Of a DNA stretch of 45,053 nucleotides, positions 3,162-40,333 are shown piece by piece. This DNA comes from Fonticula-like sp. SCN 57-25 (lineage: Eukaryota): positions 1-45,053 of the forward strand of contig MEDX01000023.1 of the NCBI GenBank assembly GCA_001724245.1, in the 5' to 3' direction. Position 1 is the stretch's first letter, and each line of letters starts with the position of its first letter. A program made the translations under genes and the position numbers. The notes beneath the pieces were generated by a model. That model was not told where the DNA came from. It worked only from the letters and a program-made list of their open reading frames with translations, and searched no databases.

Positions 3162-5487
3162 ATGCTGGCCGCCGTGGTCCGCGCTCGCGCCGCTCGGGTG
3201 CTGAGCGTGCGCGCCTTTGGCAGCACAACTGGTACGTTTTATGCTCTTTTCATTTTATATAATGTCTTTTATTTTTCCTTCTTTCTTGTCGCTTGCGCCA
3301 CGCCTGTTCAATGGTCGTTGACCTCTCGCTTTTGCAGGTCGCCTTCAAGCGACGGCGGTTCCCCCGCCGCCGCCGGGCATGGAGATTGAGGTCGACGGCA
3401 TGAAGGTGACCGTCCCCCCGGGCACCCCCCTTATTGTTGCGTGCGAAAAGGCCGGTGTTGAGATTCCGCGTTTCTGCTACCATGAGCGCCTTGCCATTGC
3501 CGGTAACTGCCGCATGTGCCTTGTGGAGGTGGAGAAGGTGCCGAAGCCGGTTGCGTCGTGCGCGTACCCCGTTTCGCCCAACATGAAGGTCAAGACAAAT
3601 ACGCCTATGGTGAAGAAGGCTCGCGAGGGTGTTATGGAGTTTTTGCTCGCCAACCACCCGCTCGATTGCCCCATTTGCGACCAGGCTGGCGAGTGCGATC
3701 TCCAGGACCAGTCGATGGCCTATGGCCAGGACCGCTCGCGTCTCCGCGAGGTTGCTGCTGGCAAGCGTGCCGTTGAGGACAAGAATTTTGGCCCCCTCGT
3801 CAAGACCAGCATGAACCGCTGCATTCACTGCACGCGCTGCGTGCGCTTCGCCACCGAGGTTGCCGGCGCCGAGGAGCTCGGCACCAGCGGCCGTGGTAAC
3901 GATATGCAGATTGGCATGTATGTGGAGAAGATTCTCGACACGGAGCTCAGCGGCAACATTGTCGATCTTTGCCCCGTCGGCGCCCTCACCGCCAAGCCGT
4001 ACGAGTTCACTGCCCGCCCGTGGGAGCTCCGCCACACCGAGTCCGTCGATGTGCACGACGCCCTCGGCAGCAACATCCGCATCGACTCGCGCGGTAACGA
4101 GGTCATGCGCATTCTTCCGCGCGTCAACGAGGCTGTCAACGAGGAGTGGATCGCCGACAAGACGCGCTACTCGTACGACGGTCTCAAGCGCCAGCGCCTG
4201 ACGAACCCGCTCATCCGCGTTGGCGACTCGTTGGAGCCCGTCTCGTGGGAGACTGCCTTTGACCGCATCCGCGAGCGCATCGTCCAGCTCCGCGGCAACC
4301 AGATGACTGCCGTTGCCGGCCAGCTCGCCGACGCCGAGTCCATCATGGCGCTCAAGGACCTCTTCAACCGCCTCGGCTCCGACAACCTGCTCTTTGACGG
4401 CGAGACCGGCCGCCCGTCGCACGGCGCCGACCTCCGCGCGTCCTACTCGTTCAACTCGACGCTCGCCGGCGCCGAGTTTGCCGACCTTGTGCTTCTCGTC
4501 GGCACGAACCCCCGCCACGAGGCCCCGCTCCTTCAGTCGCGCTTCCGCAAGTCCTACGTGAGCCGCGGTGCCGATTTCGCCCTCATCGGCGAGCCGGCCA
4601 AGCTCACCGTCGAGTACGACCACCTCGGCACGTCGCCCAAGGATCTGTACGCGGCGCTCGATAAGAAGCATCCGTTCGCCAAGCGCCTCGCCGCGGCCAA
4701 GCGCCCGATGATCGTCGTCGGCGCCGATGTTGCCAACCGCGAGGACGGTGACGCCATTTTTGCCGCCATCCACGCGCTTCGCGAGAGCGTCCCGGCGCTC
4801 CAGACGCCCGAGTGGAACGGCGTTTCGGTTCTGCAGCGCAGCGCTGCTCGCACCGCCGCGCTCGATCTCGGCTTCACCCCCGGCCAGAATGCCGTTCTCG
4901 GTGCCGAGGGTCGCCAGCTTATGTTCCTTCTCGGTGCCGATGATGTGTCGCCAAAGGACATCCCCGCCGGCGCCTTTGTCGTCTACCAGGGCCACCACGG
5001 CGACGTTGCGGCGCACTACGCCGACGTTATCCTCCCCGGCGCCGCCTACACGGAAAAGGTCGGCACGTACGTCAACACGGAAGGCCGCGCTCAGCGCACC
5101 CGCGTTGCCGTGAGCCCGCCTGGCAATGCTCGCGAGGACTGGCAGATTATCCGTGCGCTCAGCGAGATGCTCGGCCTCCAGCTGCCCTACGATGACGCTG
5201 CCGGTATCGGCGCGCGCATCGGGCAGGTTGCCCCTCACATCCTCGAGGTGGACTCGCTCCAGCCTGCCTACGGTGCGGATCTCCTCACGGTCGCCGCCAA
5301 GGAGGCCGCCGCGCGCCCGGAGAGCCTCCAGGCCAAGAAGGACAACAGCGGGCGGCCGTTCGCGCTCCCGATCAAGGACTACTACCTGACGGACGCGATC
5401 TCCCGCTCGTCCCGGACGATGGCCAAGTGCTCCGCTACATACACACATGGCAACAAGTCGTCTCAGGCTGCCGCCTCGGCCCATTAA
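3162..5487 (+). CDS. NDUFS1: NADH:ubiquinone oxidoreductase 75 kDa Fe-S subunit, mitochondrial precursor
   Basis: Arg/Ala-rich presequence exon, intron 3232-3337, then IPRFCYHERLAIAGNCRMC, HPLDCPICDQAGECDLQ and CIHCTRC Fe-S motifs. Confidence 0.98.
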
Positions 5488-5877: not shown

Positions 5878-8214
5878 ATGCCCCCAAAGTCTTCGCTAAG
5901 TAATGGAATTACTGTGAGTCCCAGCGGTTTGGAAGAATTGCTGTCGGGGTCGAAGCGCTCGGCGAATGCCGAGTCGCGGCCGCTGAGGCTCGTTGCCGAC
6001 AGCCCGCATGGCGACACCACGACGTACAAGAACCATCTGCTGGGATCCGCGCAGGGCATGAGCTTCACGAGTCGCTTCCATGTGCTAGTTCCGGTTTGCT
6101 TGCTGACGCTTGTCTTGCTTTTTACCGCGATTTTCCGCTCGACTGCGTACGGGAGGTATTCAACGTGCCTCGAGGAGGGTGGAGTGGCCAAGCTGCTCGA
6201 CTCTTCCAACTCGAGCTATATTTCGTTGAACGAAACTTCTTCCGAGCTGCTCGAACCTTCCGAACTGCTCTTTTACTGCATACCTGTGAACGCGACATCC
6301 GACGAGGCTGCCGTCAATTCGTTCAGCACATTTGTCTTTTGGCTTGACGCGATGCCGCTCTATGGCCTGGTGATCTGGTCATTTGTCATTATTGTTCGAC
6401 TTCTTCTTCAGCGTTTGTCGAAGGAGCATTCCATTTTGCCTGGTATTGTATTGTCACAGTACGAGAGCATCCCCAGCAGCAAGGATTCTTTCGAAGACGG
6501 CGACCCCGAAGGCGGCTCCTACAGTAGGCGCGCCAGAGCTTCCACGATGGATGTTGGCATTATTGGCAAGAACGAATGTTCCTGCGGCGTCCCAATCCTT
6601 GAGGATGGCACCGGCCATTCCGCCAACCAGCGCGACACCATTGTGAAAAGGTATCATCTTCACATGCTTATGGAGCTGGGACAGAAGGTGTGCCCTTGCC
6701 CACCTTGCCATGCCATGTTTGAATCAGCAGTGGCGGATAACGCATTCAAGCCTGACCAGCCCGTGCCGCCAATGCTTGGCATTGATGAAACTGCGCCATT
6801 CTGGTTCAGCCCGAGGGCGCTCTTCAATCTCTTCTACAAGGCACCGGCACACCAAACAGAACTGTATGTCAACTCGCGCCACGGTGTTCAGATAGCCGGG
6901 TTCATCGTCTGCGGTTATTTGGTGTCGCTCATGTTTGCGATTGCACCGACCGCGATGCAGGTATGCCGTAGCCACCTTCCGCTCGAGGAGGCCGCCGGCA
7001 TGGTCTGCCCGTTCTCCCCGATCCAATCGTTCTCCCAGTTTTCTGGCTCCTGCGATTCGTGCAGCATTGCAGTGATATCATTGTCAAACGCTGCGTTCGG
7101 ATGGTTTGTTGGCGCCATGTTCTTCATCGCGCTCGCAAACGGCTGGCAGCCGTCCGACACAACCGCATCATCATATCAGGCAAACGCCCGCGAGCTGTAC
7201 GAGTCCCATCCCAACGCCGTCCGCATTCTGAGCGCCGCGCTCAAGTCGGCCAAGGAGGACAAGAAGTTGCAGTCGCATTCGGCATTTATGAAATGGCGCT
7301 TTGGTATTATCGCCTCAATGGCGACATCTATCCTGCTGTTTTTCGCACTCTATGCCGGAAGTTTGATCTATCTACTCTTTGGCCGTTCCTCTGCAAATAC
7401 TGCGGAAGAGATTATGGAGCTCTTTTCGGAGAATCCCGCGTTTTGGGCTGGCTGCGTCCTTGCTGTAATTTCCAGCGCAATCGCCATGGTAATCATTCTT
7501 CGCTGCATTTACGTCGAAGCGATCACAGCGCTGAAGCGGCCTCTTGTGGAGCAGATTCACCTAACCTCGCTGCTCGACCCTTCCATTCTGTTTACCTCGC
7601 CCGACGATCGCCCGATTGCAAAGTCGCCGGACGAGGTTGCGAATCGCTTTGACGAGGATCGCGCATACATTGCGGACTGGCTTCGCGCGCGCCGTTTTCA
7701 TTACAGATTCATTGCAAACTTTGAGCTCAAGTCTGTTCAGGCGTTCTTGGTGGGTTTGGTTGTTGTAAGCGTCACTTGCCTCGTGCTGGCATACGTGAAT
7801 GTGGCAACGCAAAGCTGGGATATTGATGTTCTTCTTTTCCCGCTGAGCGTGCTAATGATCTATATTGCCATTTACGCGGCAATGGTGCTGGTCACCTACT
7901 TGACCCTTATAATCAAGCTGCTGGGGAGCGATACCGCGCAGCTTCTCGTCTTGCACGCGTACTCGTACCTTTGCTACAGCCGCGAGTTTATCTATCGGGT
8001 GGAGCCGAGCGTGGGTCAGCTTGTTGGAGCAGAATATAAGGCGTTCCAGGCGTTCATCATGCACGTTTCGTCTATGCTCAGCACCGACTATATCGAACCG
8101 CACGCAGTTATCTTTGGGTTTACTGTGCACAAGAGGTACAAGACCCTTGCCCAGTCGTATCTCTTTTCCGCCGCTGCTTCGCTCGTTGGAATCCTCTACA
8201 GCCAGCTTGCATAA
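5878..8214 (+). CDS. Intronless multipass membrane protein (778 aa), candidate PHTF/GRL-like 7TM ion channel
   Basis: About nine hydrophobic segments. IADWLRARRF...LKSVQAFLV and the terminal PHAVIFGFTVHKRYKTLAQSYLFSAAASLVGIL resemble recalled PHTF/DUF3537 motifs. The ORF is secure; the family call is by eye. Confidence 0.6.
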   Translation: MPPKSSLSNGITVSPSGLEELLSGSKRSANAESRPLRLVADSPHGDTTTYKNHLLGSAQGMSFTSRFHVLVPVCLLTLVLLFTAIFRSTAYGRYSTCLEEGGVAKLLDSSNSSYISLNETSSELLEPSELLFYCIPVNATSDEAAVNSFSTFVFWLDAMPLYGLVIWSFVIIVRLLLQRLSKEHSILPGIVLSQYESIPSSKDSFEDGDPEGGSYSRRARASTMDVGIIGKNECSCGVPILEDGTGHSANQRDTIVKRYHLHMLMELGQKVCPCPPCHAMFESAVADNAFKPDQPVPPMLGIDETAPFWFSPRALFNLFYKAPAHQTELYVNSRHGVQIAGFIVCGYLVSLMFAIAPTAMQVCRSHLPLEEAAGMVCPFSPIQSFSQFSGSCDSCSIAVISLSNAAFGWFVGAMFFIALANGWQPSDTTASSYQANARELYESHPNAVRILSAALKSAKEDKKLQSHSAFMKWRFGIIASMATSILLFFALYAGSLIYLLFGRSSANTAEEIMELFSENPAFWAGCVLAVISSAIAMVIILRCIYVEAITALKRPLVEQIHLTSLLDPSILFTSPDDRPIAKSPDEVANRFDEDRAYIADWLRARRFHYRFIANFELKSVQAFLVGLVVVSVTCLVLAYVNVATQSWDIDVLLFPLSVLMIYIAIYAAMVLVTYLTLIIKLLGSDTAQLLVLHAYSYLCYSREFIYRVEPSVGQLVGAEYKAFQAFIMHVSSMLSTDYIEPHAVIFGFTVHKRYKTLAQSYLFSAAASLVGILYSQLA

Positions 8215-8545: not shown

Positions 8546-9825
8546 ATGGCGTGGGGTGCGCCCGCGTCGTGCCGCGTGGCGACGGGGGCCGAGTCGTATG
8601 GGCGCTACGTAGTGGCCGACCGCGACATGTCGCCTGGAGACGTGGTGCTTGACGTGCTTTCATATGCCTTTACAATCTCTGATGCCCATCGGAAACGAGT
8701 GTGCGCGTGGTGCATGCGGTGGAGCGCCGACGGTCGGCTGCCGCTCTCCTGCTCCAAGTGTGACATTGTCTACTTTTGCTCGCAGTCGTGTCTTGATATG
8801 TGTATGAACGCGTCGCTTTTAGGCGGCGATCACGCCCGCGCTTGCGGCCTGTATCGCCGAATCAACTCGTTCGCCTCGTCCAAGGATGCCGCTGCGGTGC
8901 TTCGCCTCGTCGCGCAGCTGAACCACCGCAAGCACCAGGAGTCAAATGGCGCCGCGCTTTGTATTGATATATGCTCGGCCTTATTTGACCCTTCCTTTGT
9001 TCCGCCTCCTGCGATCCCGCTCGCGATCCCCCCGATCGGCCAACTCGAGGCTCTCTCGCTTGATGACTCACCGTCCACGACGGATAGTGGCGATCCCGCC
9101 CCTGCCGTCCCGCTCGAGCCCCCTTTCTACCATGTCGTTCCAACGGCAGAGCAGGCGCAAGAGCGCGCTGCCCGCACCGCCTCTCTTGCGCAGCTTGTTC
9201 AAGACGACGGCGCCCCCCAGCTCGTCCTTCGCCCTCCCACGTGGGCCGACGTCGACCTCCTCGCGCACCACCTCGCCGACTGGCCTGCCGACACTGCGCG
9301 CCAGTGGAAGTGCGTTTTATTTGGCATATGTTCATAGTTTCATTGACACAATACTGCAGGAAAGACGTCCGATTTCTGAGTGAAGCGCTCAATGCCGCTG
9401 GCTTTGGCTGTGATGAAACGGGCGTCCTTGAGCTGGTCGGCAAGGTCGAGAGCAACAGCTTTGGGCTTTGGTCGTCTTCTGGTGTCCCTTTTGGCCGCGC
9501 GCTTGTCCCACTTGCGTCCTACTTTAACCACTCGTGCGACCGCAACTGCGCTGTCGAGCAGGACACTGCTTTCGGTCACATGCGGTTTCGGGCCACACGC
9601 GACATCCGCAAGGGCGAGGAGCTGACGATCAGGTATGCGGGTGCTGGCGTGCCGGTGAGCCGGCGCACCGAGCTGCTGCAAGAGGGATACTACTTTACAT
9701 GCATGTGTGCGCTGTGCGTCGCCGAGCGCGAGCAGCCCGGGAGGTCAAAGCATACGTACGACAAAAGCACGCGGGGAGAGCATAAGCCAAAACAGCTGAA
9801 GAAAAAGGCATTGTACACCAGGTAG
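8546..9825 (+). CDS. SET and MYND domain (SMYD-like) lysine methyltransferase
   Basis: Split SET start (YGRYVVADRDM), MYND Cys pattern (CAWC, CSKC, FCSQSC), SYFNHSC, GEELTIRY and post-SET FTCMCALC. One intron near 9310-9359. Confidence 0.9.
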
Positions 9826-9903: not shown

Positions 9904-10951
9904 TTAAGCATGGCCGATGGGCACTGACGATGGCGTGGACGCTGCCGACGTCGATGACGGCACCACCGCGGCAGCCATTGCGCCGCTTGCCTGTGTCTGC
10001 ATGACGCGCGCGCTAACGCGCTTGCAAATGTCTGCGATGACCGGGTTCGTGTCGGGCTCGAGCTCGTGCATGATCGAGTATGCGTTGAGGATGTCTTGCG
10101 TCACCTCGAGGATTTCATTGACGTCCACGTTGAGTTCTGCAAACCACTGCGCGACGGTCTCCACCTGCGCTTCGTTATCGTCGCGCATAGTGACTGCAAT
10201 GTAGATTGCCGCGAGGCTCACGAGGAACGGGGGGTAGAGCAGCGACGCGTCGGTGCGCAGCGAGTCGTTGACGACGCTCCATGCAGTCTGTAAAAGATGC
10301 GGCGCGTTGAGGTCGTGGAGGTACTGCGTTAGCGGCCGGTATGGATGGTAAACAATTAAGTAGCAGTCGAGATCTTCGAGAAGGTACAGCTCGCATTCCA
10401 GGATGTCGCGCTCCGTGTACTGGTAGTCCTTGATGGGCGTCTCGGCGATCGCGGCTTTGGTCTTGTCGAGAATCGTGCGAGCGACCTGGGCGCACTCTTC
10501 TACCTTGCACGCAAGGTAGAGACATGTCGGTGCAACTAGAAGCGGATCAACCTCTAGCATCGTATTCCTGTAGTGATGTGAGCAAATCGCTGCAGAAAAA
10601 AGGGGCCCGCGTACTTTACATAAAAGCGTTTAAAGTAAACGACGGCAGTTGCCACTACTTGCTGCCGCACCTGATGCTGCCGCGCTTGCCCAATCATTTG
10701 AATAACTACGCAGTATATTTGTTAGCGCTCGTGTATTGAAGAAGTGCAGCAGTGCCGTACGGCGGACGCAAAACAGCTTGTAGCGCTGCACCTCTTGCGC
10801 CGTCAAATAATGGTAATTCAACGCATCATTTTCGCGAATTGTTCTCCGGTCAACCAACCAGTGGTTACTGCACTCAAGTCAGCTCGCGCAGTCCAGAAAA
10901 AGGGCAAACAGTCGCGTACCAATGCGACGAAAGCCAAAAGTTGGCCGCCAT
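9904..10951 (-). CDS. CCNC: Cyclin C (Mediator kinase module)
   Basis: MAANFWLSSH...RQQVVATAVVYFKRFY...DPLLVAPTCLYLACKVEE...YLIVYHPYRPL; three GT-AG introns. Confidence 0.96.
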
Positions 10952-12959: not shown

Positions 12960-15697
12960 TTACAGCTCGGTAATCGTGTCGGCAAACTCGGCCCGCAGAA
13001 TGTGAAGCGTGCGCATTGTGAGCGCCACCATGTACCTCGATCGCCGCTGGTCGTCGAGCGCGCGGCTCAGCTCTGGCCGGCCAAAGAGGGCGAGCACACG
13101 GCGCTGGTCCTCTACCTGTCCCTTGGCAGCCAAGTGCACTGTAAAAATATTTAGAACACAATGAGCAGTAAGAAATTAGCGCGTACGTGCGACGATCTCG
13201 AGTGCCGCTGGCTCGTAGAGGCACTCGACATGCGGGCTCGCCGCGCTGCCCATCTGCACGGCCAGTCGCACGTACTCTAAACAGGCGCTCACCTGTACAT
13301 TCTGGCACAGCAGCGCAGCATAAAGAAACTCTAAAGAAAAGTTAGCGCGTGATTCCTATCGTATATAAGCGCACCGTTCAAATGATCGCAGCACGAAATC
13401 ATGAGGTGCCACACGACAAAGCGCGGCGCTTCGGGCCGCAGCTGCCTCGCGGCATTTCCCGACGTGTCAACCGGTTTCTCGGGCCCGCCCAGCAACGGGA
13501 TCCGATCCTGCCAGAGGACGCGCTCGGGCAAGTCCGACTGAAGCAGGTTGGCGAGCGACTCGCGGTACTCGCGCGCCCAGAACGACAGGAAAGCGCGCAG
13601 GAGAATGACGTTTGAACGCTCGCGCTCGCGCAGCCACTCGTCCACAAGGTGCCTGCACAGCAACGCCGCCACGCGGCCGTACGAAATAAGCGCGCGGGAC
13701 GCGTCCGGGGCGGGCCACGCGGACTTTACATCCTGCGGCACCTTGGCCGGCAGCTCGCTCGCGTCGAGCAGCAGCATATAGAGCGGCGCCACCATTGGGT
13801 ACAGGCCGTTGACGCACTCTGTCGGCGTCATCGAAAAGGGATGCGGAGCCACTGACGGCGTCTTGGCAGCGCCCTTGTCGTCCACGTAACCTCGAACGGC
13901 GACGGCGACAAAAAGCTGAAAGAGAACAAGCGCGTCGGTCGCGCTGAGGGACTCGACGAGGGGGAGGAGAGCCGCGCTACTTGCTTCCAGGTCGTCGGCC
14001 GCGGCGATGCGCAATGTAATATCGCGGGCAGTTGCGGCCAAGGCGCGCACGGCCGCAAGGTCGTTGACGATCGGCGAGCCGCCGGGCGCCGCAGTCTTTC
14101 CATGCATCGCAGCCGACACTGTCGCGATTGTGTCGCGGGCCTGCGCAATCTGCCACGCGAGCGCGCCGACTTGAATGACGAGGCGCGCTTGCGCGACGTG
14201 TGCATCGGCGGCACCGCACCGCGCAAGGTGAGCGTCGACGGCGTCGGCAAAGCGCAAAGAGGCGTCGTCCGAAAGGACAGCGTGTACCGCGGCGGCCTGC
14301 GCGAGCACCTTGACTGGCAGCAGTCCAGACGACGCGTTCAGGCACCACATTGCATTCTCGGAAAGGACGCCATCGTCCATCTTTGACGGATCCAGGCGAC
14401 GCGCGGCAAAGTCGCATTGAAGCAGGCCGACGGCGGCCGACGCGTGGTTGCCCGACGACGACTCGTTGGCCGCTACGATGGAAAACATTTGGCGCGCAGA
14501 GGCAATCTCGCCGCGCGCCAAAAGGCGCGAAGCAGTCGCGAGCAAAAGGACGCCCGAGTCGGACGGAAGGAACGTCGGCGGAAGATTCGCGGCGGCGCTT
14601 TGAAGCGACACCGTGTCCTTGGCAGCGAGCACATCGCGGACGCGCAGCAGCATGTCGACACCTTTGGCGCTGCGCCGCTGTTCGCGACCGACGGCGCGGA
14701 CGCCCGCAAGGCCGGCAATTTCGTGCTCGAGATCCTTGTCGACGCTCCCGACAACGTCAAGCAAGTCGGGCTGCGCGCGAATCTTTGCCAGGGCGGGGAG
14801 GCCAAAGGCCGAAGCGCGGCCGGCCGGGCGGCGGAGGGCAATGCACGCGCGCAAACGGACAAACTGTGCGTCCGTCAGGCGCGGCGCAACGCGGTCACAC
14901 AGCGTGCATAAAAGCGCCACGGGGACGGACGAAAGCGAGGCGGCGTGGCAGAGCGCGTCCACATTGCTCTCGTCAGCGGCAGCCAGGGCGAGCTGGATGG
15001 GCGTTGGTGACGTTGGCGAGCCCGTGGCAAGCGCGACTATGCGCTCAAGTCCTTCGAGTGTGCGTCGTTGAGAGTCGGAGACCCGCATGTTTGAGCGTTG
15101 GAGGTCGGGCACGCGCGCTAGCAGCTGCTTTGCTTCATCCATTGCGTCGACGCGCACATAGTAGGAGGCCACCTCGATGAGCGTGGCGAAAGAAGCTGAC
15201 GCGCCGAGCGAGTCAAGGCAAGCAACAAGCTCATTGGCAACGTCGGAGAGCGACGTGAGGGGCTGGTTCCGCGGCGGGGCGCCGCTGATCTTGAGGTCGG
15301 CGAGGGGCATCGCGACGCGGACCCGCAAAAGGCCGCGGCATGCCCACACGGTTGATTCTAGCGTATTCTGCGCCGCAACGGCGCTCAACAAAAAGGGACG
15401 CAATGCCGGCGACAGTTCAAGTGCTTCTATCTCGTCATGCGACAAGCCGCACTGCATAATCACCCGGGCGCTGAGAGTGAGGAGTGAGCGCTCCCACTTT
15501 GTCGCCTCTGGCGTCGGCTGCTCGAGCAGGGTCCTGTACTGCGTCCTCTCTGTCATTTGCCGCACAAGATCCACCGCTGTAGACCTAGACGCCTCTGAGC
15601 GGTTGACATTCGCAGCCAAGACGTCCACTAGTGTGGGGTCCGCTAAAAGCTGGAAGAACTCGCTGGGCAGCTCCGCCGCCACCGCAGCAGCCTCCAT
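12960..15697 (-). CDS. INTS8: Integrator complex subunit 8-like
   Basis: N-terminal EFFQLLADPTLVDVL...AVDLVRQM...ERSLLTLSARV and spliced C-terminal MISCCDHLNEFLYAALLCQ...ALEIVALHLAAKGQVEDQRRVLALFGRPELS parallel recalled human INTS8 termini (WFEFLL..., MIKCCSLLNCHTQVAILCQ...IGQTELN). Two introns near the 3' end. Confidence 0.75.
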
Positions 15698-28081: not shown

Positions 28082-29176
28082 TTATGCTTGCTTTTCGGAA
28101 CCACCGTTTTTTGGCGTGCTCTTTGGCTTGTTGTTCGAAACATACGGGCGCTGGGTAAAGGTCACGGATAGGCCGATGACAACGTCCTGGGGCCTCTGAA
28201 CGGTGGCCTGGGCGGATGCAATGACCCGGAGCCACATGAAAGGGAGCGGAATCATGGACACTGCGGCCGCCACGCCGGCGCTACCCCTCGAGTCAATGCG
28301 GCCGTAGAGCTGCAGGTTGTTAGCAAGCTCCCACGAACCGCCGAGCCGCAGCGTGCGCTTGATAGGACCAGCATCATTGTCGGCGGCGGTGCGCTCGCTT
28401 TCGGGTACCCTCTCAAGCTCAAAGTCGCCGCCAACGGATACCCGCCGGCCGTTGTAAATGTGCTCCTGAACATACGCACCGCGCACGAATCTAAAGCTTT
28501 CACGCGTGCGTGCGCTCATCTGGTAGCGGATCTTGTTGTCCACGTCCACGCTACCATAGCTGACTCCTGCGTCAAGACATACGTCAAAACGGCGGTCTGC
28601 ATAGCGGTAGTAGTCGGGGACGGGGATCGCGGAAGCGATGGCAGAAACGCGCAGGCGGGAGCCGAGCGGAACAACGACCGCCGCGCTCAAGTAGTCTTTC
28701 GTGGGCAGAAAGCGCCCAGACGCCGTGAGCATGCATCGCGCAAGGTTGAAGCCACCATCGAGCGCGACGTCGGCTCCGCCAGTCTTTGTCTGCGCGACGG
28801 ACCCGAACAGGAAGGCAGGGGTCTCGACTGTCCCCGCGCGAAAGTCGAGGGCAAGTGGCGAGTCTGCCTCTGTCGAGGCACGCGCATGCATGCTAAAGTT
28901 CCCCTCCTCGGCCATTAGTTCCGCGTGCGACGTGACCGAGTGCTGCTGCTTTGAGTTACTGGGCGGCACCAGCCTCAGGGAGCCGAGCGCGCGGACATGC
29001 GTGTCCGGATGCAGCAAAAAGTGCACCGACGACTCGCCAAACGGCGCGTTCAGCAAGTCACCCGCAAGGTCGCGCTCAAATGGCGAGCGTGCGCGACGGA
29101 AAAAGCTCGACCAAGGCGCGCTCCGCACCCCCGCGAGCTCGTCCCACTGCCGTGCCTGCTCCCAGTTGATGTCCAT
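28082..29176 (-). CDS. Predicted beta-barrel outer-membrane protein (eukaryotic porin superfamily; OM47-like or Mdm10-like)
   Basis: Intronless; many amphipathic strands (LDAGVSYG, VSVGGDFEL, LRLGGSWEL, LQLYGRIDS, VVIGLSVTF) and no long hydrophobic helix. Alternative ATG at 29206. Confidence 0.55.
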   Translation of the reverse strand: MDINWEQARQWDELAGVRSAPWSSFFRRARSPFERDLAGDLLNAPFGESSVHFLLHPDTHVRALGSLRLVPPSNSKQQHSVTSHAELMAEEGNFSMHARASTEADSPLALDFRAGTVETPAFLFGSVAQTKTGGADVALDGGFNLARCMLTASGRFLPTKDYLSAAVVVPLGSRLRVSAIASAIPVPDYYRYADRRFDVCLDAGVSYGSVDVDNKIRYQMSARTRESFRFVRGAYVQEHIYNGRRVSVGGDFELERVPESERTAADNDAGPIKRTLRLGGSWELANNLQLYGRIDSRGSAGVAAAVSMIPLPFMWLRVIASAQATVQRPQDVVIGLSVTFTQRPYVSNNKPKSTPKNGGSEKQA

Positions 29177-29211
29177 CGCCAGAATGCAAACTGTCGTAGT
29201 TTGCATCAATC

Positions 29212-37084: not shown

Positions 37085-40000
37085 TTATACAAAGGTTGCC
37101 CTGAGGGACACAATCTGGAAGGGCTTGAAGGAGATCGGGGCACTACGGTTGCCCTCAAATGCAATGGCATCTCCCGCATCCTCCAAAATATTACACAGCA
37201 CGAGCGACTTGAGCGACCACGCAAACTCGAACGAGACACTGTCGCGCCCCCCGTACGCTTCGTACGCACGCACAATAACTGCGCTGCTGTCCTCTGACTG
37301 CTTGAGCGTCTCAACGAGCACATACTCTGATTGGTGAACGCCATGCGCGCGGACCCAGGGCGCAGCCGTGCGAATGGCGGCAAAGTCAATGAGCGGCGCG
37401 TTAAAGTCGGCCGCGCGCTGCACCACGCGCCCCTGCGCAAGCGTCCCACTAAACGTGCCGAGCGCGTATCTGAACGTGTGCCTGCCCATGTCGCACGTGT
37501 CGTCTGGCGCCTTTGGCGAGCGCAGGAGCGATAGCCCCATGTCGGCCCCGCGGCAGCTGTAGCCGTGCTTGGAGTCATTGAAGAGCACCACGCCGAAATT
37601 GTCTTCAGACAGAGCGGCAAAGCGCTGTGCGCACACTTCAAACTTTGCCATGTCCCATGACGTGTTGGCGTGCGTCGGGCGCTTGACGAGGCCCCACTGC
37701 GTCTCGTATACGGCGTCGGTCGCGCCAATGATGTCAACCGGAAAGTGCGTCTTTAGCATCGTGCGGTTATCATGCCAGTCGACCGATGAAGAAAAGGCAA
37801 CTTGGCGAGCATCGCATTCCAGAGAAATTTCTTGTTCCCACGTAGAGTGGTCCGACAGCTTGCCTGACACGCGGACGCACGCACGCAGTGGACCAGAAGA
37901 CAGGAGCTCAATGGTCGGGAGACACTCACGCAGCGGGGAACGATGCGACTCGCTGTGGTACACTTCGACATCCCACGCGTCCCAAAAAAGCGGCACATCC
38001 GAGTACATGCGGAGCTCATTGCCCGGGCTTTTCAACACCTCCCTGCCGCCGTCGAGCTTGTCGATCAGCGACGAAAGCTCGCCGCTCGCGTTGATGGTCG
38101 CGCGCAGATAGGCATTCTCGAGAACCACTTGGCCGTCGGAAGCAGTACTGGCCGAGACGGGCTCGCTGGGCGACGTCCGCGCCGACACTGGCACTGCGCT
38201 ATAGGGAGGCAGGGTGTCGAGGTAAACTAGCACACCGCCTTCAAAGGCCTGGGTGGTGCCGGTCGACCCAGCAGCAGCCTCCTCTGGCACGAGGATGACC
38301 GACGCGTCCCTGCGTGTCCCGAGCATGTTGAGCGCCGCCAGCGAAGTGTCCTTGCTCGATAGCGCTTTGGTCGCATCCTGCATGACGCTCGCCGCGGCGT
38401 AGCCAGCGTCGTCGTACAGGCGCATGACGTCCTCGTAGACAGACGCGATCGACGTCCCCGGGATGACGTCATGGAACTGGTTCAGCAACAGTGACTTGTA
38501 CGCGTCGCGCAGCGCATCAGCAGGGTACGGGAGCTGTGCCGAGAGCAGCGCTGCGACAGAGAGCGCCTCGGCGAAGCGGAGCCGCACCTGCAGCTTGCGG
38601 TTTCGGAGCTTTGTCAGCGCCTGGCTCGTGTACGTGCCGCGGTGGAGCTCGAGGTAGAGCTCGCCGGACCACGTGAGCAGCCGGTCGCGCGACTTGGCAA
38701 ACGTGTCAAAGGCCTCGACAGGGTCGGCAAAGCGCGCGACAGCGAGGCCCTGAAGGGAAGAAGAAAGGCGCACGCGCTCGATGTGGTCGGCAGTGGGGCC
38801 GCCGCCGCCGTCGCCAAAGCCAACCAGGTGAAGCGCGTCCGCGCAGCGCTCCTTGTCGCGGTGGTTCTTGGTAATGTCGCACAATTCCTCGACAGTAGCG
38901 CGGCCATTGTACGTGTTGCCAGGGGGAAAGTGGACGAGCACATCGGATCCGTCCAGGCCCTGCCACAAAAATGTGGTGTGGGGAAACTTGTTGATCAGAT
39001 TCCACGACAGTTTCTGCGTGAGGAAATAATCCATGCCGGCTTGCTTCATGAGCTGCGGAAGCTGCGATGCATATCCGAATGTGTCGGGAAGCCAGAAAAT
39101 ACTGAGCAAGGTCAGCAAGGGTAGAGCGAATCAAAAGGCCATACCGTGACCGCGTGCCAAACATTTCCTGCATATAACCTTGTCCGTACAAAAACTGCCT
39201 CACTAGTGACTCGCCGTCGGGAATATTACAATCCTTCAAAGGCGTGAGTGAAATGTATCGCTAGCGACGTGATCGTACCATCTCCACCCAGGTTCCGCCG
39301 ATAGGGATAAACTGCCCGGCTGCCACTTTTTCCTGAATGCGTGCAAAGAGCGCCGGGTAATCCTGGCGCACCCTAAATTGATGGTTAATACAAAAATTAT
39401 GCATGTATCTGCGTACCATTCAAACTGCTGCATCTGGGAGCAGGCAAACTTGTACTCGGGGTAGCGGTCCATCAGGGCGATCTGGGACGCCCACGACCGG
39501 GCACACTTGCGGCGAGTCTCGGCATACGGCCAGAGCCACGCCGTATCAATGTGGCAATGACCCACAATAAATGCAGAATTGAGCGGCGAGCTATTGCTCA
39601 GCGCTTGCACCGCATGCTCGGCCAGCTCGATGCATCGGTCGATCGACGCGTCATCGCGACGATACGCGTTTACAATGTCGTTTGCAGATGTAAGCGCGCG
39701 CGCGGCTGCAACGCTGTCTGGCGGAAGAGATGCTGCCATGCCGCTGAGAAGCTCAAAGTACCGCCATAGTTTGCGACCCTGCGCGTGGGGGGCGAGTATG
39801 CGTGCCGAGGCGAGTCTGAACGTGCGGTTGGGGTCAGGCGGGTTGATCATGCCGGCGTTGCCAACACCAAATAGGCCGTTGCAGGACATTTCAATGTATA
39901 CGGTCGTGGAATGCGCCAGTAAGAGCTCGAGCGGGACCTCGACGCGGCGATCGTCCCCGTCGCCCCCTGTCAGCCCCTGGATTGGGGTCCCGGCGGCATC

Positions 40001-40333
40001 ATAGACCAGTGCCTCGGCAGAGCAATCCCACTCGAGCATCAAACCAGAGACGTCTGTAAACTCGGCTGGCAGCTGAACTTTAACCACAAACCAATGCGTC
40101 GACCACGACGGGCCGAACGAGTCGCCAACGGCGCACGGCTGAAAGGCGGCGTCGCTCTTGTCCACATCCGCAAACAGAGGGCGGCCCTGAACGTGCTGGA
40201 CGCCGAGCTCGAGTACAGAGTCGGGTAGGACGCGCTCGACAAGCTTGCTTCGAAGGTTTATGTCCGCAAAGTAGATCGGCGACACGAACTTTTCGAACCG
40301 CTCGAGCGTCACCGCCCTGTGCTTCTGCATCAT
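37085..40333 (-). CDS. MAN2C1: Cytosolic/vacuolar alpha-mannosidase, GH38 (Ams1/MAN2C1)
   Basis: [55 protein letters not shown]. Confidence 0.97.

Follow-up and report, generated by a model that had tools for sequence, protein, structure and literature searches.

The gene and its coding sequence

The stretch of DNA analysed here (the window) comprises positions 1 to 45,053 of contig MEDX01000023.1. On its forward strand, at 5878..8214, it carries an open reading frame (ORF) for a multi-pass membrane protein of 778 amino acids. The window protein is called P0001, P0003 is its full-length relative, and P0004-P0007 are distant relatives in the form of fragments. The C-terminal part of P0001 resembles, in its predicted fold, the seven-transmembrane ion channels (7TMICs), the superfamily of the insect receptors for smell (odorant receptors, ORs) and for taste (gustatory receptors, GRs). 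7TMICs form the largest family of insect chemoreceptors and are now thought to be ancient; to our knowledge, almost nothing is known of their function outside animals. The gene and the parts of its product are as follows, with transmembrane helices abbreviated TM.

5878..8214, + strand: complete intronless coding region for 778 aa, with its stop codon (ATG-to-stop ORF, alignment with P0003, strain differences)
5878..6075, + strand: N-terminal tail, residues 1-66, predicted cytosolic, 7 K+R
6076..6144, + strand: extra helix TM-a, residues 67-89, hydrophobicity peak 2.52, also present in P0003
6145..6330, + strand: predicted extracellular loop, residues 90-151, with 2 K+R, 9 D+E, and 3 sequons
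6331..6423, + strand: extra helix TM-b, residues 152-182, hydrophobicity peak 2.12, MPLYGL motif conserved in P0003
6424..6792, + strand: predicted cytosolic region, residues 183-305 (123 residues)
6577-6711, + strand: Cys/His cluster C234, C236, H247, H262, C272, C274, C277, H278, with 8 of 8 positions invariant between P0001 and P0003
6793..8211, + strand: seven-helix core, residues 306-778, with an OR/GR (7TMIC)-like predicted fold
Core helices within it: TM1 326-365, TM2 393-422, TM3 465-502, TM4 520-564, TM5 584-644, TM6 655-701
Last helix in the AlphaFold2 (AF2) model: TM7a-like 710-735, non-helical break 736-751, TM7b 752-777
7627..8211, + strand: most conserved part, residues 584-778, putative anchor and pore region (invariant columns, match span of the relatives)

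The intronless ORF of 778 residues announced in a preliminary description of this DNA was recovered as an unbroken frame from ATG to stop. P0003 (808 aa, 53% identity) aligned with P0001 end to end, from M1 to the last residue, and thus the start codon and the intronless state hold in both genes. Contigs of four public metagenome runs (X2, X4, X5, and X6) were mapped onto the ORF, and no joints pointing to introns or deletions were found in these DNA contigs across it. Run X6 contained a strain about 98% identical, with 38 listed positions differing from the window ORF; third codon positions accounted for 34 of them, first positions for 4, and second positions for none (binomial P ~9e-13 for at least 34 of 38 at one codon position). 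Thirty-four changes were synonymous, the other 4 replaced a residue conservatively (E>K, V>I, N>K, E>D), and the sole indel added 9 bases behind base 6213 (codon 112) without shifting the frame. Since synonymous changes make up 34 of the 38 differences and the one indel keeps the frame, the reading frame is under purifying selection. GC-rich DNA does yield long spurious frames, such as one of 744 aa that runs opposite NDUFS1 (3250..5484), and an open frame arising by chance in such DNA had to be considered. This explanation is refuted by the third-position strain differences with their lone in-frame indel, together with the existence of one full-length relative at 53% identity and four distant ones; nine well-formed hydrophobic helices with a positive-inside ratio of 48:4 also speak against it, leaving a chance frame with practically no probability. 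The ORF is a genuine gene that selection maintains in an uncultured eukaryote.

Membrane topology, N-terminal addition, and relatives

A Kyte-Doolittle scan with a 19-residue window revealed eight strong hydrophobic segments in P0001 (61-92, 152-182, 335-363, 395-423, 473-504, 519-553, 614-647, and 646-687). Roughly nine had been announced; the ninth corresponds to the model helix 752-777 in P0001 and rose above threshold in P0003. The seven core helices span residues 326-777 in the model, six of them being hydrophobic in the P0001 scan and the seventh above threshold in P0003, and the whole protein has nine helices, two of which lie N-terminal to the core. When nine helices were laid out with the N-terminus inside, 48 K+R residues fell inside and 4 outside, and all three N-x-S/T sequons (3 of 3) were located in the first outside loop. 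Conserved Cys pairs were found in outside loops: C97 and C134 in loop 90-151 were invariant between P0001 and P0003, which differ there by an 8-residue indel, and C377, C392, and C395 in the first outside loop of the core were conserved. The core is predicted from its sequence to have the N-terminus inside and the C-terminus outside. The first outside loop is an indel hot spot at positions 6211-6216 (codons 112/113), the T-H-T added in the X6 strain standing exactly at the 8-residue insertion of P0003.

The core was then compared with the 7TMIC feature list in the cited sections of the preprint 10.1101/2023.08.30.555482. Its outside loops measured 35, 21, and 8 residues and its inside loops 55, 74, and 79, the outside loops being the shorter, as in 7TMICs. 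In the model, TM4, TM5, and TM6 were 45, 61, and 47 residues long (with a kink in TM6 at 683), and ten-residue means of the predicted local distance difference test (pLDDT) across TM4-TM6 ranged from 56 to 88. The hydrophobic cores of these helices covered only 522-545, 620-643, and 652-676; being shorter than the helices, they imply that the rest projects on the K/R-rich side. The non-helical break at 736-751 includes EPHAVIFGF and showed an identity of 0.81 to P0003, and the succession of 710-735, break, and 752-777 reads as TM7a, break, and TM7b in a part of the model of low confidence. A TM0 candidate was found in the conserved hydrophobic stretch 306-325 (identity 0.70), which contained a short model helix at 312-320 with a pLDDT below 50; the TM0 re-entrant loop is not used as a 7TMIC criterion in the cited part of the preprint (10.1101/2023.08.30.555482). 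On the last helix, T756, S760, and S764 formed a Thr/Ser ladder of i+4 spacing that is conserved in P0003.

Nine columns were invariant in 6 of 6 family sequences (W601, A604, R605, N614, P655, L659, A667, Q688, and G747); all of them sit in TM5-TM7, within the motifs W601-L-x-A-R-R-F-H608 and F746-G747. Between P0001 and P0003, conservation was highest in the second intracellular loop (IL2) with TM5, in TM6, in IL3, and in the break, identity peaking in IL3a (0.88), the linker between 7a and 7b (0.81), and TM6 (0.72). TM7b, the pore-helix candidate, was the least conserved core element (0.48). The concentration of conservation in TM5-TM7 fits the C-terminal pattern described for 7TMICs in the cited part of the same preprint (10.1101/2023.08.30.555482). 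The three peptide stretches quoted in the preliminary description for comparison with PHTF motifs were found at residues 545-564, 597-625, and 741-773, and its Cys motifs CSC and CPCPPCH at residues 234-236 and 272-278.

These Cys motifs belong to the Cys/His cluster of the N-terminal addition. No match to this region was found in Pfam or the PDB; judged by its spacing, the cluster is probably a metal-binding module. Residues 1-305 had no counterpart among the N-terminal additions described for 7TMICs in the portions of the literature cited here, the supplementary lists of which might hold relatives. The addition, a two-helix hairpin followed by a cytosolic Cys/His-rich stretch, appears to be lineage-specific.

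Sequence searches returned few relatives. A word-indexed search of 5.8 billion proteins (7999 candidates scored) gave P0001 itself and P0003 only. A two-sequence HMMER profile run against 1.84 billion cluster representatives gave six proteins at E<=1e-3, one of them P0001; four others were P0004 (385 aa, E 7.9e-23), P0005 (267 aa, E 1.7e-14), P0006 (435 aa, E 2.5e-10), and P0007 (188 aa, E 2.9e-5). The sixth, P0008 (1953 aa), matched over 8 short stretches with an E of 8.4e-4 and was disregarded, low-complexity hydrophobic sequence being the likely cause. P0004-P0007 matched profile positions 489-807 alone, the C-terminal half, and look like fragments of eukaryotic genes. The metagenome contig of P0006 (L001, 1..6120) ends at the 5' side of the gene and has split ORFs; downstream, fragmented eukaryotic-looking ORFs with TBC/RabGAP-like and kinase-like pieces were recognised by eye. 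Further searches added nothing: a five-sequence profile recovered only P0004 and P0001 among 8000 scored candidates, P0006 as a query found no protein but itself and, in a metagenome scan, only its own contig, and a metagenome scan for relatives gave 151 pattern matches with 0 confirmed. On these searches, then, the data now available contain a tiny family, with six sequences among ~15 billion proteins. Pfam gave nothing for P0001 at E<=10 but a sub-threshold DUF3099 line, with no match to DUF3537 (PF12056), 7tm_6, 7tm_7, PHTF, or Tmp39, and nothing relevant for P0003-P0007 at E<=1, where P0004-P0007 had no family above the cut-off.

Predicted fold of the core and its interpretation

An AF2 model of residues 296-778 was built on a six-sequence alignment and reached a pLDDT of 60.7 and a predicted template-modelling score (pTM) of 0.54, with block pLDDT means of 65-88 for residues 546-745 and of 36-53 for the last helix (746-778); the highest values, 70-88, were reached in the part from 545 to 745. 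The preliminary description had suggested an AlphaFold model followed by Foldseek as a check, and when this was run on the core against 350,542 PDB chains, ranks 1-8 were all insect GRs (Gr43a, BmGr9). The best match was Gr43a chain 8zdz_A (E 8.6e-3, probability 1.00, template-modelling (TM) scores 0.32/0.39), and more GR/OR chains followed at ranks 10, 11, 14, 23, 24, and 33. VIA-align, run independently of Foldseek on 48,161 PDB cluster representatives, likewise placed eight insect OR/GR chains first; scores were 11.2 for AaegOR10, ApisOR5, and Gr43a, 10.8 for BmGr9, 10.2 for the 8z9a chain (ApisOR5-Orco complex), 9.6 for AgamOR28, and 8.7 for Gr64a. G-protein-coupled receptors, rhodopsins, and other seven-helix folds were absent from the best 50 rows of either VIA list. 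Insect OR/GR structures were the best PDB matches of the core model in three fold searches. For residues 296-778, the named clusters of the ESM Atlas included seven DUF3537 clusters at 0.90 or above (180 shared features for the best) and four clusters with 7tm_7 on 10-57% of members at 0.85-0.87, all of which serve as leads only.

P0001 shares with insect ORs and GRs (Orco 6C70, MhOR5 7LIC, Gr43a 8ZDZ/8JM9, BmGr9 8VC1; families 7tm_6/7tm_7) the predicted N-in/C-out orientation, the short outside loops, the long TM4-TM6, a last helix that reads as broken in the model, and the conservation of the C-terminal half. It differs from them in a structure-aligned identity of only 6-13% with no hidden Markov model (HMM) match, in a length of 778 aa that is about twice theirs, in its 305 extra N-terminal residues with two membrane helices and the Cys/His-rich module, and in its host, an uncultured non-animal eukaryote. 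Kinetoplastid GRL1 (MORN repeats plus 7TMIC) and GrlHz (WD40 plus 7TMIC) are precedents for lineage-restricted 7TMICs with large N-terminal additions, and were found by structure only, with BLAST relatives confined to one clade, according to the cited part of PMC9998090; their additions, however, are soluble repeat domains, whereas P0001 adds two membrane helices, an outside loop with cysteines and putative glycans, and the Cys/His cluster.

Two specific kinships named in the preliminary description found no support in the tests made here. The hallmark of PHTF-like proteins is a long IL1 between TM2 and TM3 (cited part of 10.1101/2023.08.30.555482), and IL1 of P0001 is short, with 42 residues between model helices or 55 between hydrophobic cores; Pfam PHTF was also unmatched. 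PHTF and other Class-B Euk7TMICs do resemble P0001 in having a long N-terminal region before the 7TMIC core and no known function, but the N-terminal region of PHTF is described as largely unstructured, and no membrane hairpin is mentioned, in the cited section of PMC9998090. DUF3537 proteins are non-animal 7TMICs that, like P0001, lack the TM7 motif of GRs, but have about 350-500 aa, seven helices, and a long IL3 (cited part of PMC7746228), and P0001 has nine helices and an N-terminal extension. PF12056 was unmatched at E<=10, and the one link to DUF3537 comes from the ESM Atlas, where it leads the named clusters that resemble P0001 and belong to 7TMICs (0.90, with 180 features in common).

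Several results weigh against a 7TMIC assignment. In the core model, 139 of the 483 modelled residues had a pLDDT below 50, TM7b, the proposed pore helix, reached 36-53, and a full-length AF2 model on a two-sequence alignment was unusable (pLDDT 35). Helix packing and TM7a/7b geometry were judged from secondary structure and aligner scores. Foldseek gave nothing at E<=1e-3 among the 350,542 PDB chains, and its TM-scores of 0.27-0.39 lie below the cut-off of 0.5 in the literature, with root-mean-square deviations of 5-7 Å. No PDB sequence matched at E<=10, either with the P0001 sequence or with the family profile, and HMMER searches of Pfam and the PDB provided no profile link from the P0001 family to any known 7TMIC family. 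In the ESM Atlas, a Tmp39 cluster (0.93) scored above DUF3537, an unnamed arthropod cluster came first for the core, and the top matches of the whole protein were unnamed ciliate membrane proteins. The GR motif in the C-terminal half of TM7, (T/S)Yhhhhh(Q/K/E)(F/L/M), called "diagnostic but not definitive" in the cited part of PMC7746228, was not in register in P0001: in the C-terminus ...SYLFSAAASLVGILYSQLA, Q776-L777 could fit the last two motif positions, and the residues 7/8 positions earlier are L and V instead of T/S-Y. The terminal S-Q-L was common to P0001 and P0003 only, P0004-P0007 having no Q. As the motif is absent, P0001 was not filed in the animal GR/GRL family.

One rival explanation is an unrelated multi-pass protein, for instance a transporter or a protein of the endoplasmic reticulum akin to TMEM39, whose resemblance to ORs and GRs would be an artefact of long helices and a shallow alignment. 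The pLDDT of 60.7, TM-scores of at most 0.39 with no Foldseek match at E<=1e-3, the lack of an HMM link to 7TMIC families, and the Tmp39 cluster at 0.93 all favour such a protein; TMEM39 kinship itself was rejected, Pfam Tmp39 being unmatched at E<=10, and topology, loop asymmetry, long TM4-TM6, and the apparently broken last helix each fit a 7TMIC independently. Training of the AF2 weights used structures whose deposition predates the release of the first OR structure (6c70, released 2018-08-22), and, if this training date is right, a memorised fold is unlikely. We consider an unrelated protein quite unlikely. A protein of 7TMIC fold could also have another job than that of a ligand-gated plasma-membrane channel, for example in scaffolding endomembranes or in handling lipids or ions, and the same may hold for PHTF. 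The fold evidence serves this explanation equally, most non-insect 7TMICs are without demonstrated channel activity (cited part of PMC9998090), the GR gate motif is absent, and the pore helix is both the least conserved core element and the least confident in the model. However, what the family conserves is precisely the anchor and TM5-TM7, from which ORs build their tetramer and pore, and the conserved cysteines and the glycosylation sequons on the outside suggest that the protein travels the secretory pathway and has an exposed surface. Another job on the same fold is regarded as unlikely.

With both alternatives weighed, the balance inclines to a 7TMIC fold and kinship of the core, and P0001 is rather probably a 7TMIC of a new type, extended by an N-terminal two-helix hairpin and a cytosolic module rich in Cys and His. 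Membership in the OR/GR superfamily with extra helices, as the preliminary description had it, is thus sustained by the best PDB fold matches, the topology, the long TM4-TM6, the TM7 that is broken in the model, and the two additional helices, and held back by TM-scores below 0.5 and the modest pLDDT. Channel function, taken on its own, is possible but on the whole doubtful, and the chemosensory, ligand-gated role proposed earlier is an inference that nothing tested here supports. A tetramer prediction with four copies of residues 530-778 gave a score of 0.00, in a run that used no alignment and in which the fold of the segment itself was uncertain, and this score counts neither for nor against a tetramer.

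If P0001 is a 7TMIC, it could function as follows. Residues ~306-778 would adopt the 7TMIC fold with the core N-terminus in the cytosol and the C-terminus outside, TM4, TM5, and TM6 would reach into the cytosol and form an anchor bundle there, and the last helix would be divided between cytosol and membrane. On the pattern of Orco, MhOR5, Gr43a, and BmGr9, the cytosolic TM4-6/7a bundle would hold four subunits together around a central cation pore lined by helix 752-777. A ligand pocket could be formed by the outer halves of TM1-6, to which the N-terminal hairpin may add a recognition surface on the outside, and the Cys/His stretch, which probably binds metal, may regulate or localise the channel as a regulatory site on the inside.

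That standard domain and profile searches missed a clade of six sequences shows that the 7TMICs can still gain branches when raw DNA is read with structure as a guide. If real, the fusion of the hairpin and the Cys/His module would represent a novel means of attaching a regulatory or sensory element to a channel core, and the module would offer a metal or redox handle on the function of a non-animal 7TMIC. The gain is incremental, as thousands of divergent 7TMICs have been catalogued and the supplementary lists might include relatives.

Genomic and environmental context

The window DNA was near-complete in one bioreactor metagenome run and partial in wastewater, aquatic, and "fungus metagenome" runs. 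The window is metagenomic, and nothing tested supports the protist origin assumed in the preliminary description, the same DNA occurring in runs labelled "fungus metagenome". A tblastn search found no second copy of the gene inside the 45 kb window. Contigs of P0003 type were present in 4 of 4 runs (X2, X4, X5, and X6), at depths similar to that of the window gene, and contigs matching 7133-7167, 7645-7704, and 5980-6014 were seen by eye to run on into P0003-like peptide. Possibly the P0003 gene is a paralogue from the same genome, possibly it belongs to a constant companion organism, which is a hint and not a result; as a further hint, the two proteins are possible heteromer partners. We consider it quite unlikely, though worth stating, that P0001 and P0003 found an unrecognised, sparse eukaryotic 7TMIC clade with nine helices, a disulfide-bonded and glycosylated outside loop, a cytosolic Cys/His metal or redox sensor coupled directly to TM1, and possibly an Orco-like heteromer of paralogues.

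Other genes identified in the window are listed below.

3379..5487, + strand: NDUFS1, seven Pfam domains, eukaryotic nuclear neighbour
9904..10560, - strand: cyclin, eukaryotic nuclear neighbour
37085..40333, - strand: GH38/Ams1-like alpha-mannosidase in two ORFs (39236..40333 and 37085..39049)

The split of the mannosidase implies an intron or frameshift near 39049-39236. It is the only gene visibly split, the adjoining NDUFS1 being one long ORF, and the intron-rich region of the preliminary description was an overstatement. The antisense frame opposite NDUFS1 (- strand) looks less like a gene than like a shadow ORF of the kind usual in GC-rich DNA. Two further ORFs on the - strand, 13331..15697 (788 aa) and 28082..29206 (374 aa), had no Pfam family at E<=1e-3. 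At 8546..9825 (+ strand), two overlapping ORFs, read by eye, have cysteines in a MYND-like arrangement and, after these, a SET-like NHSC motif, and Pfam gave nothing in the first ORF of the pair; the two may be a single SET/MYND gene with an intron or frameshift.

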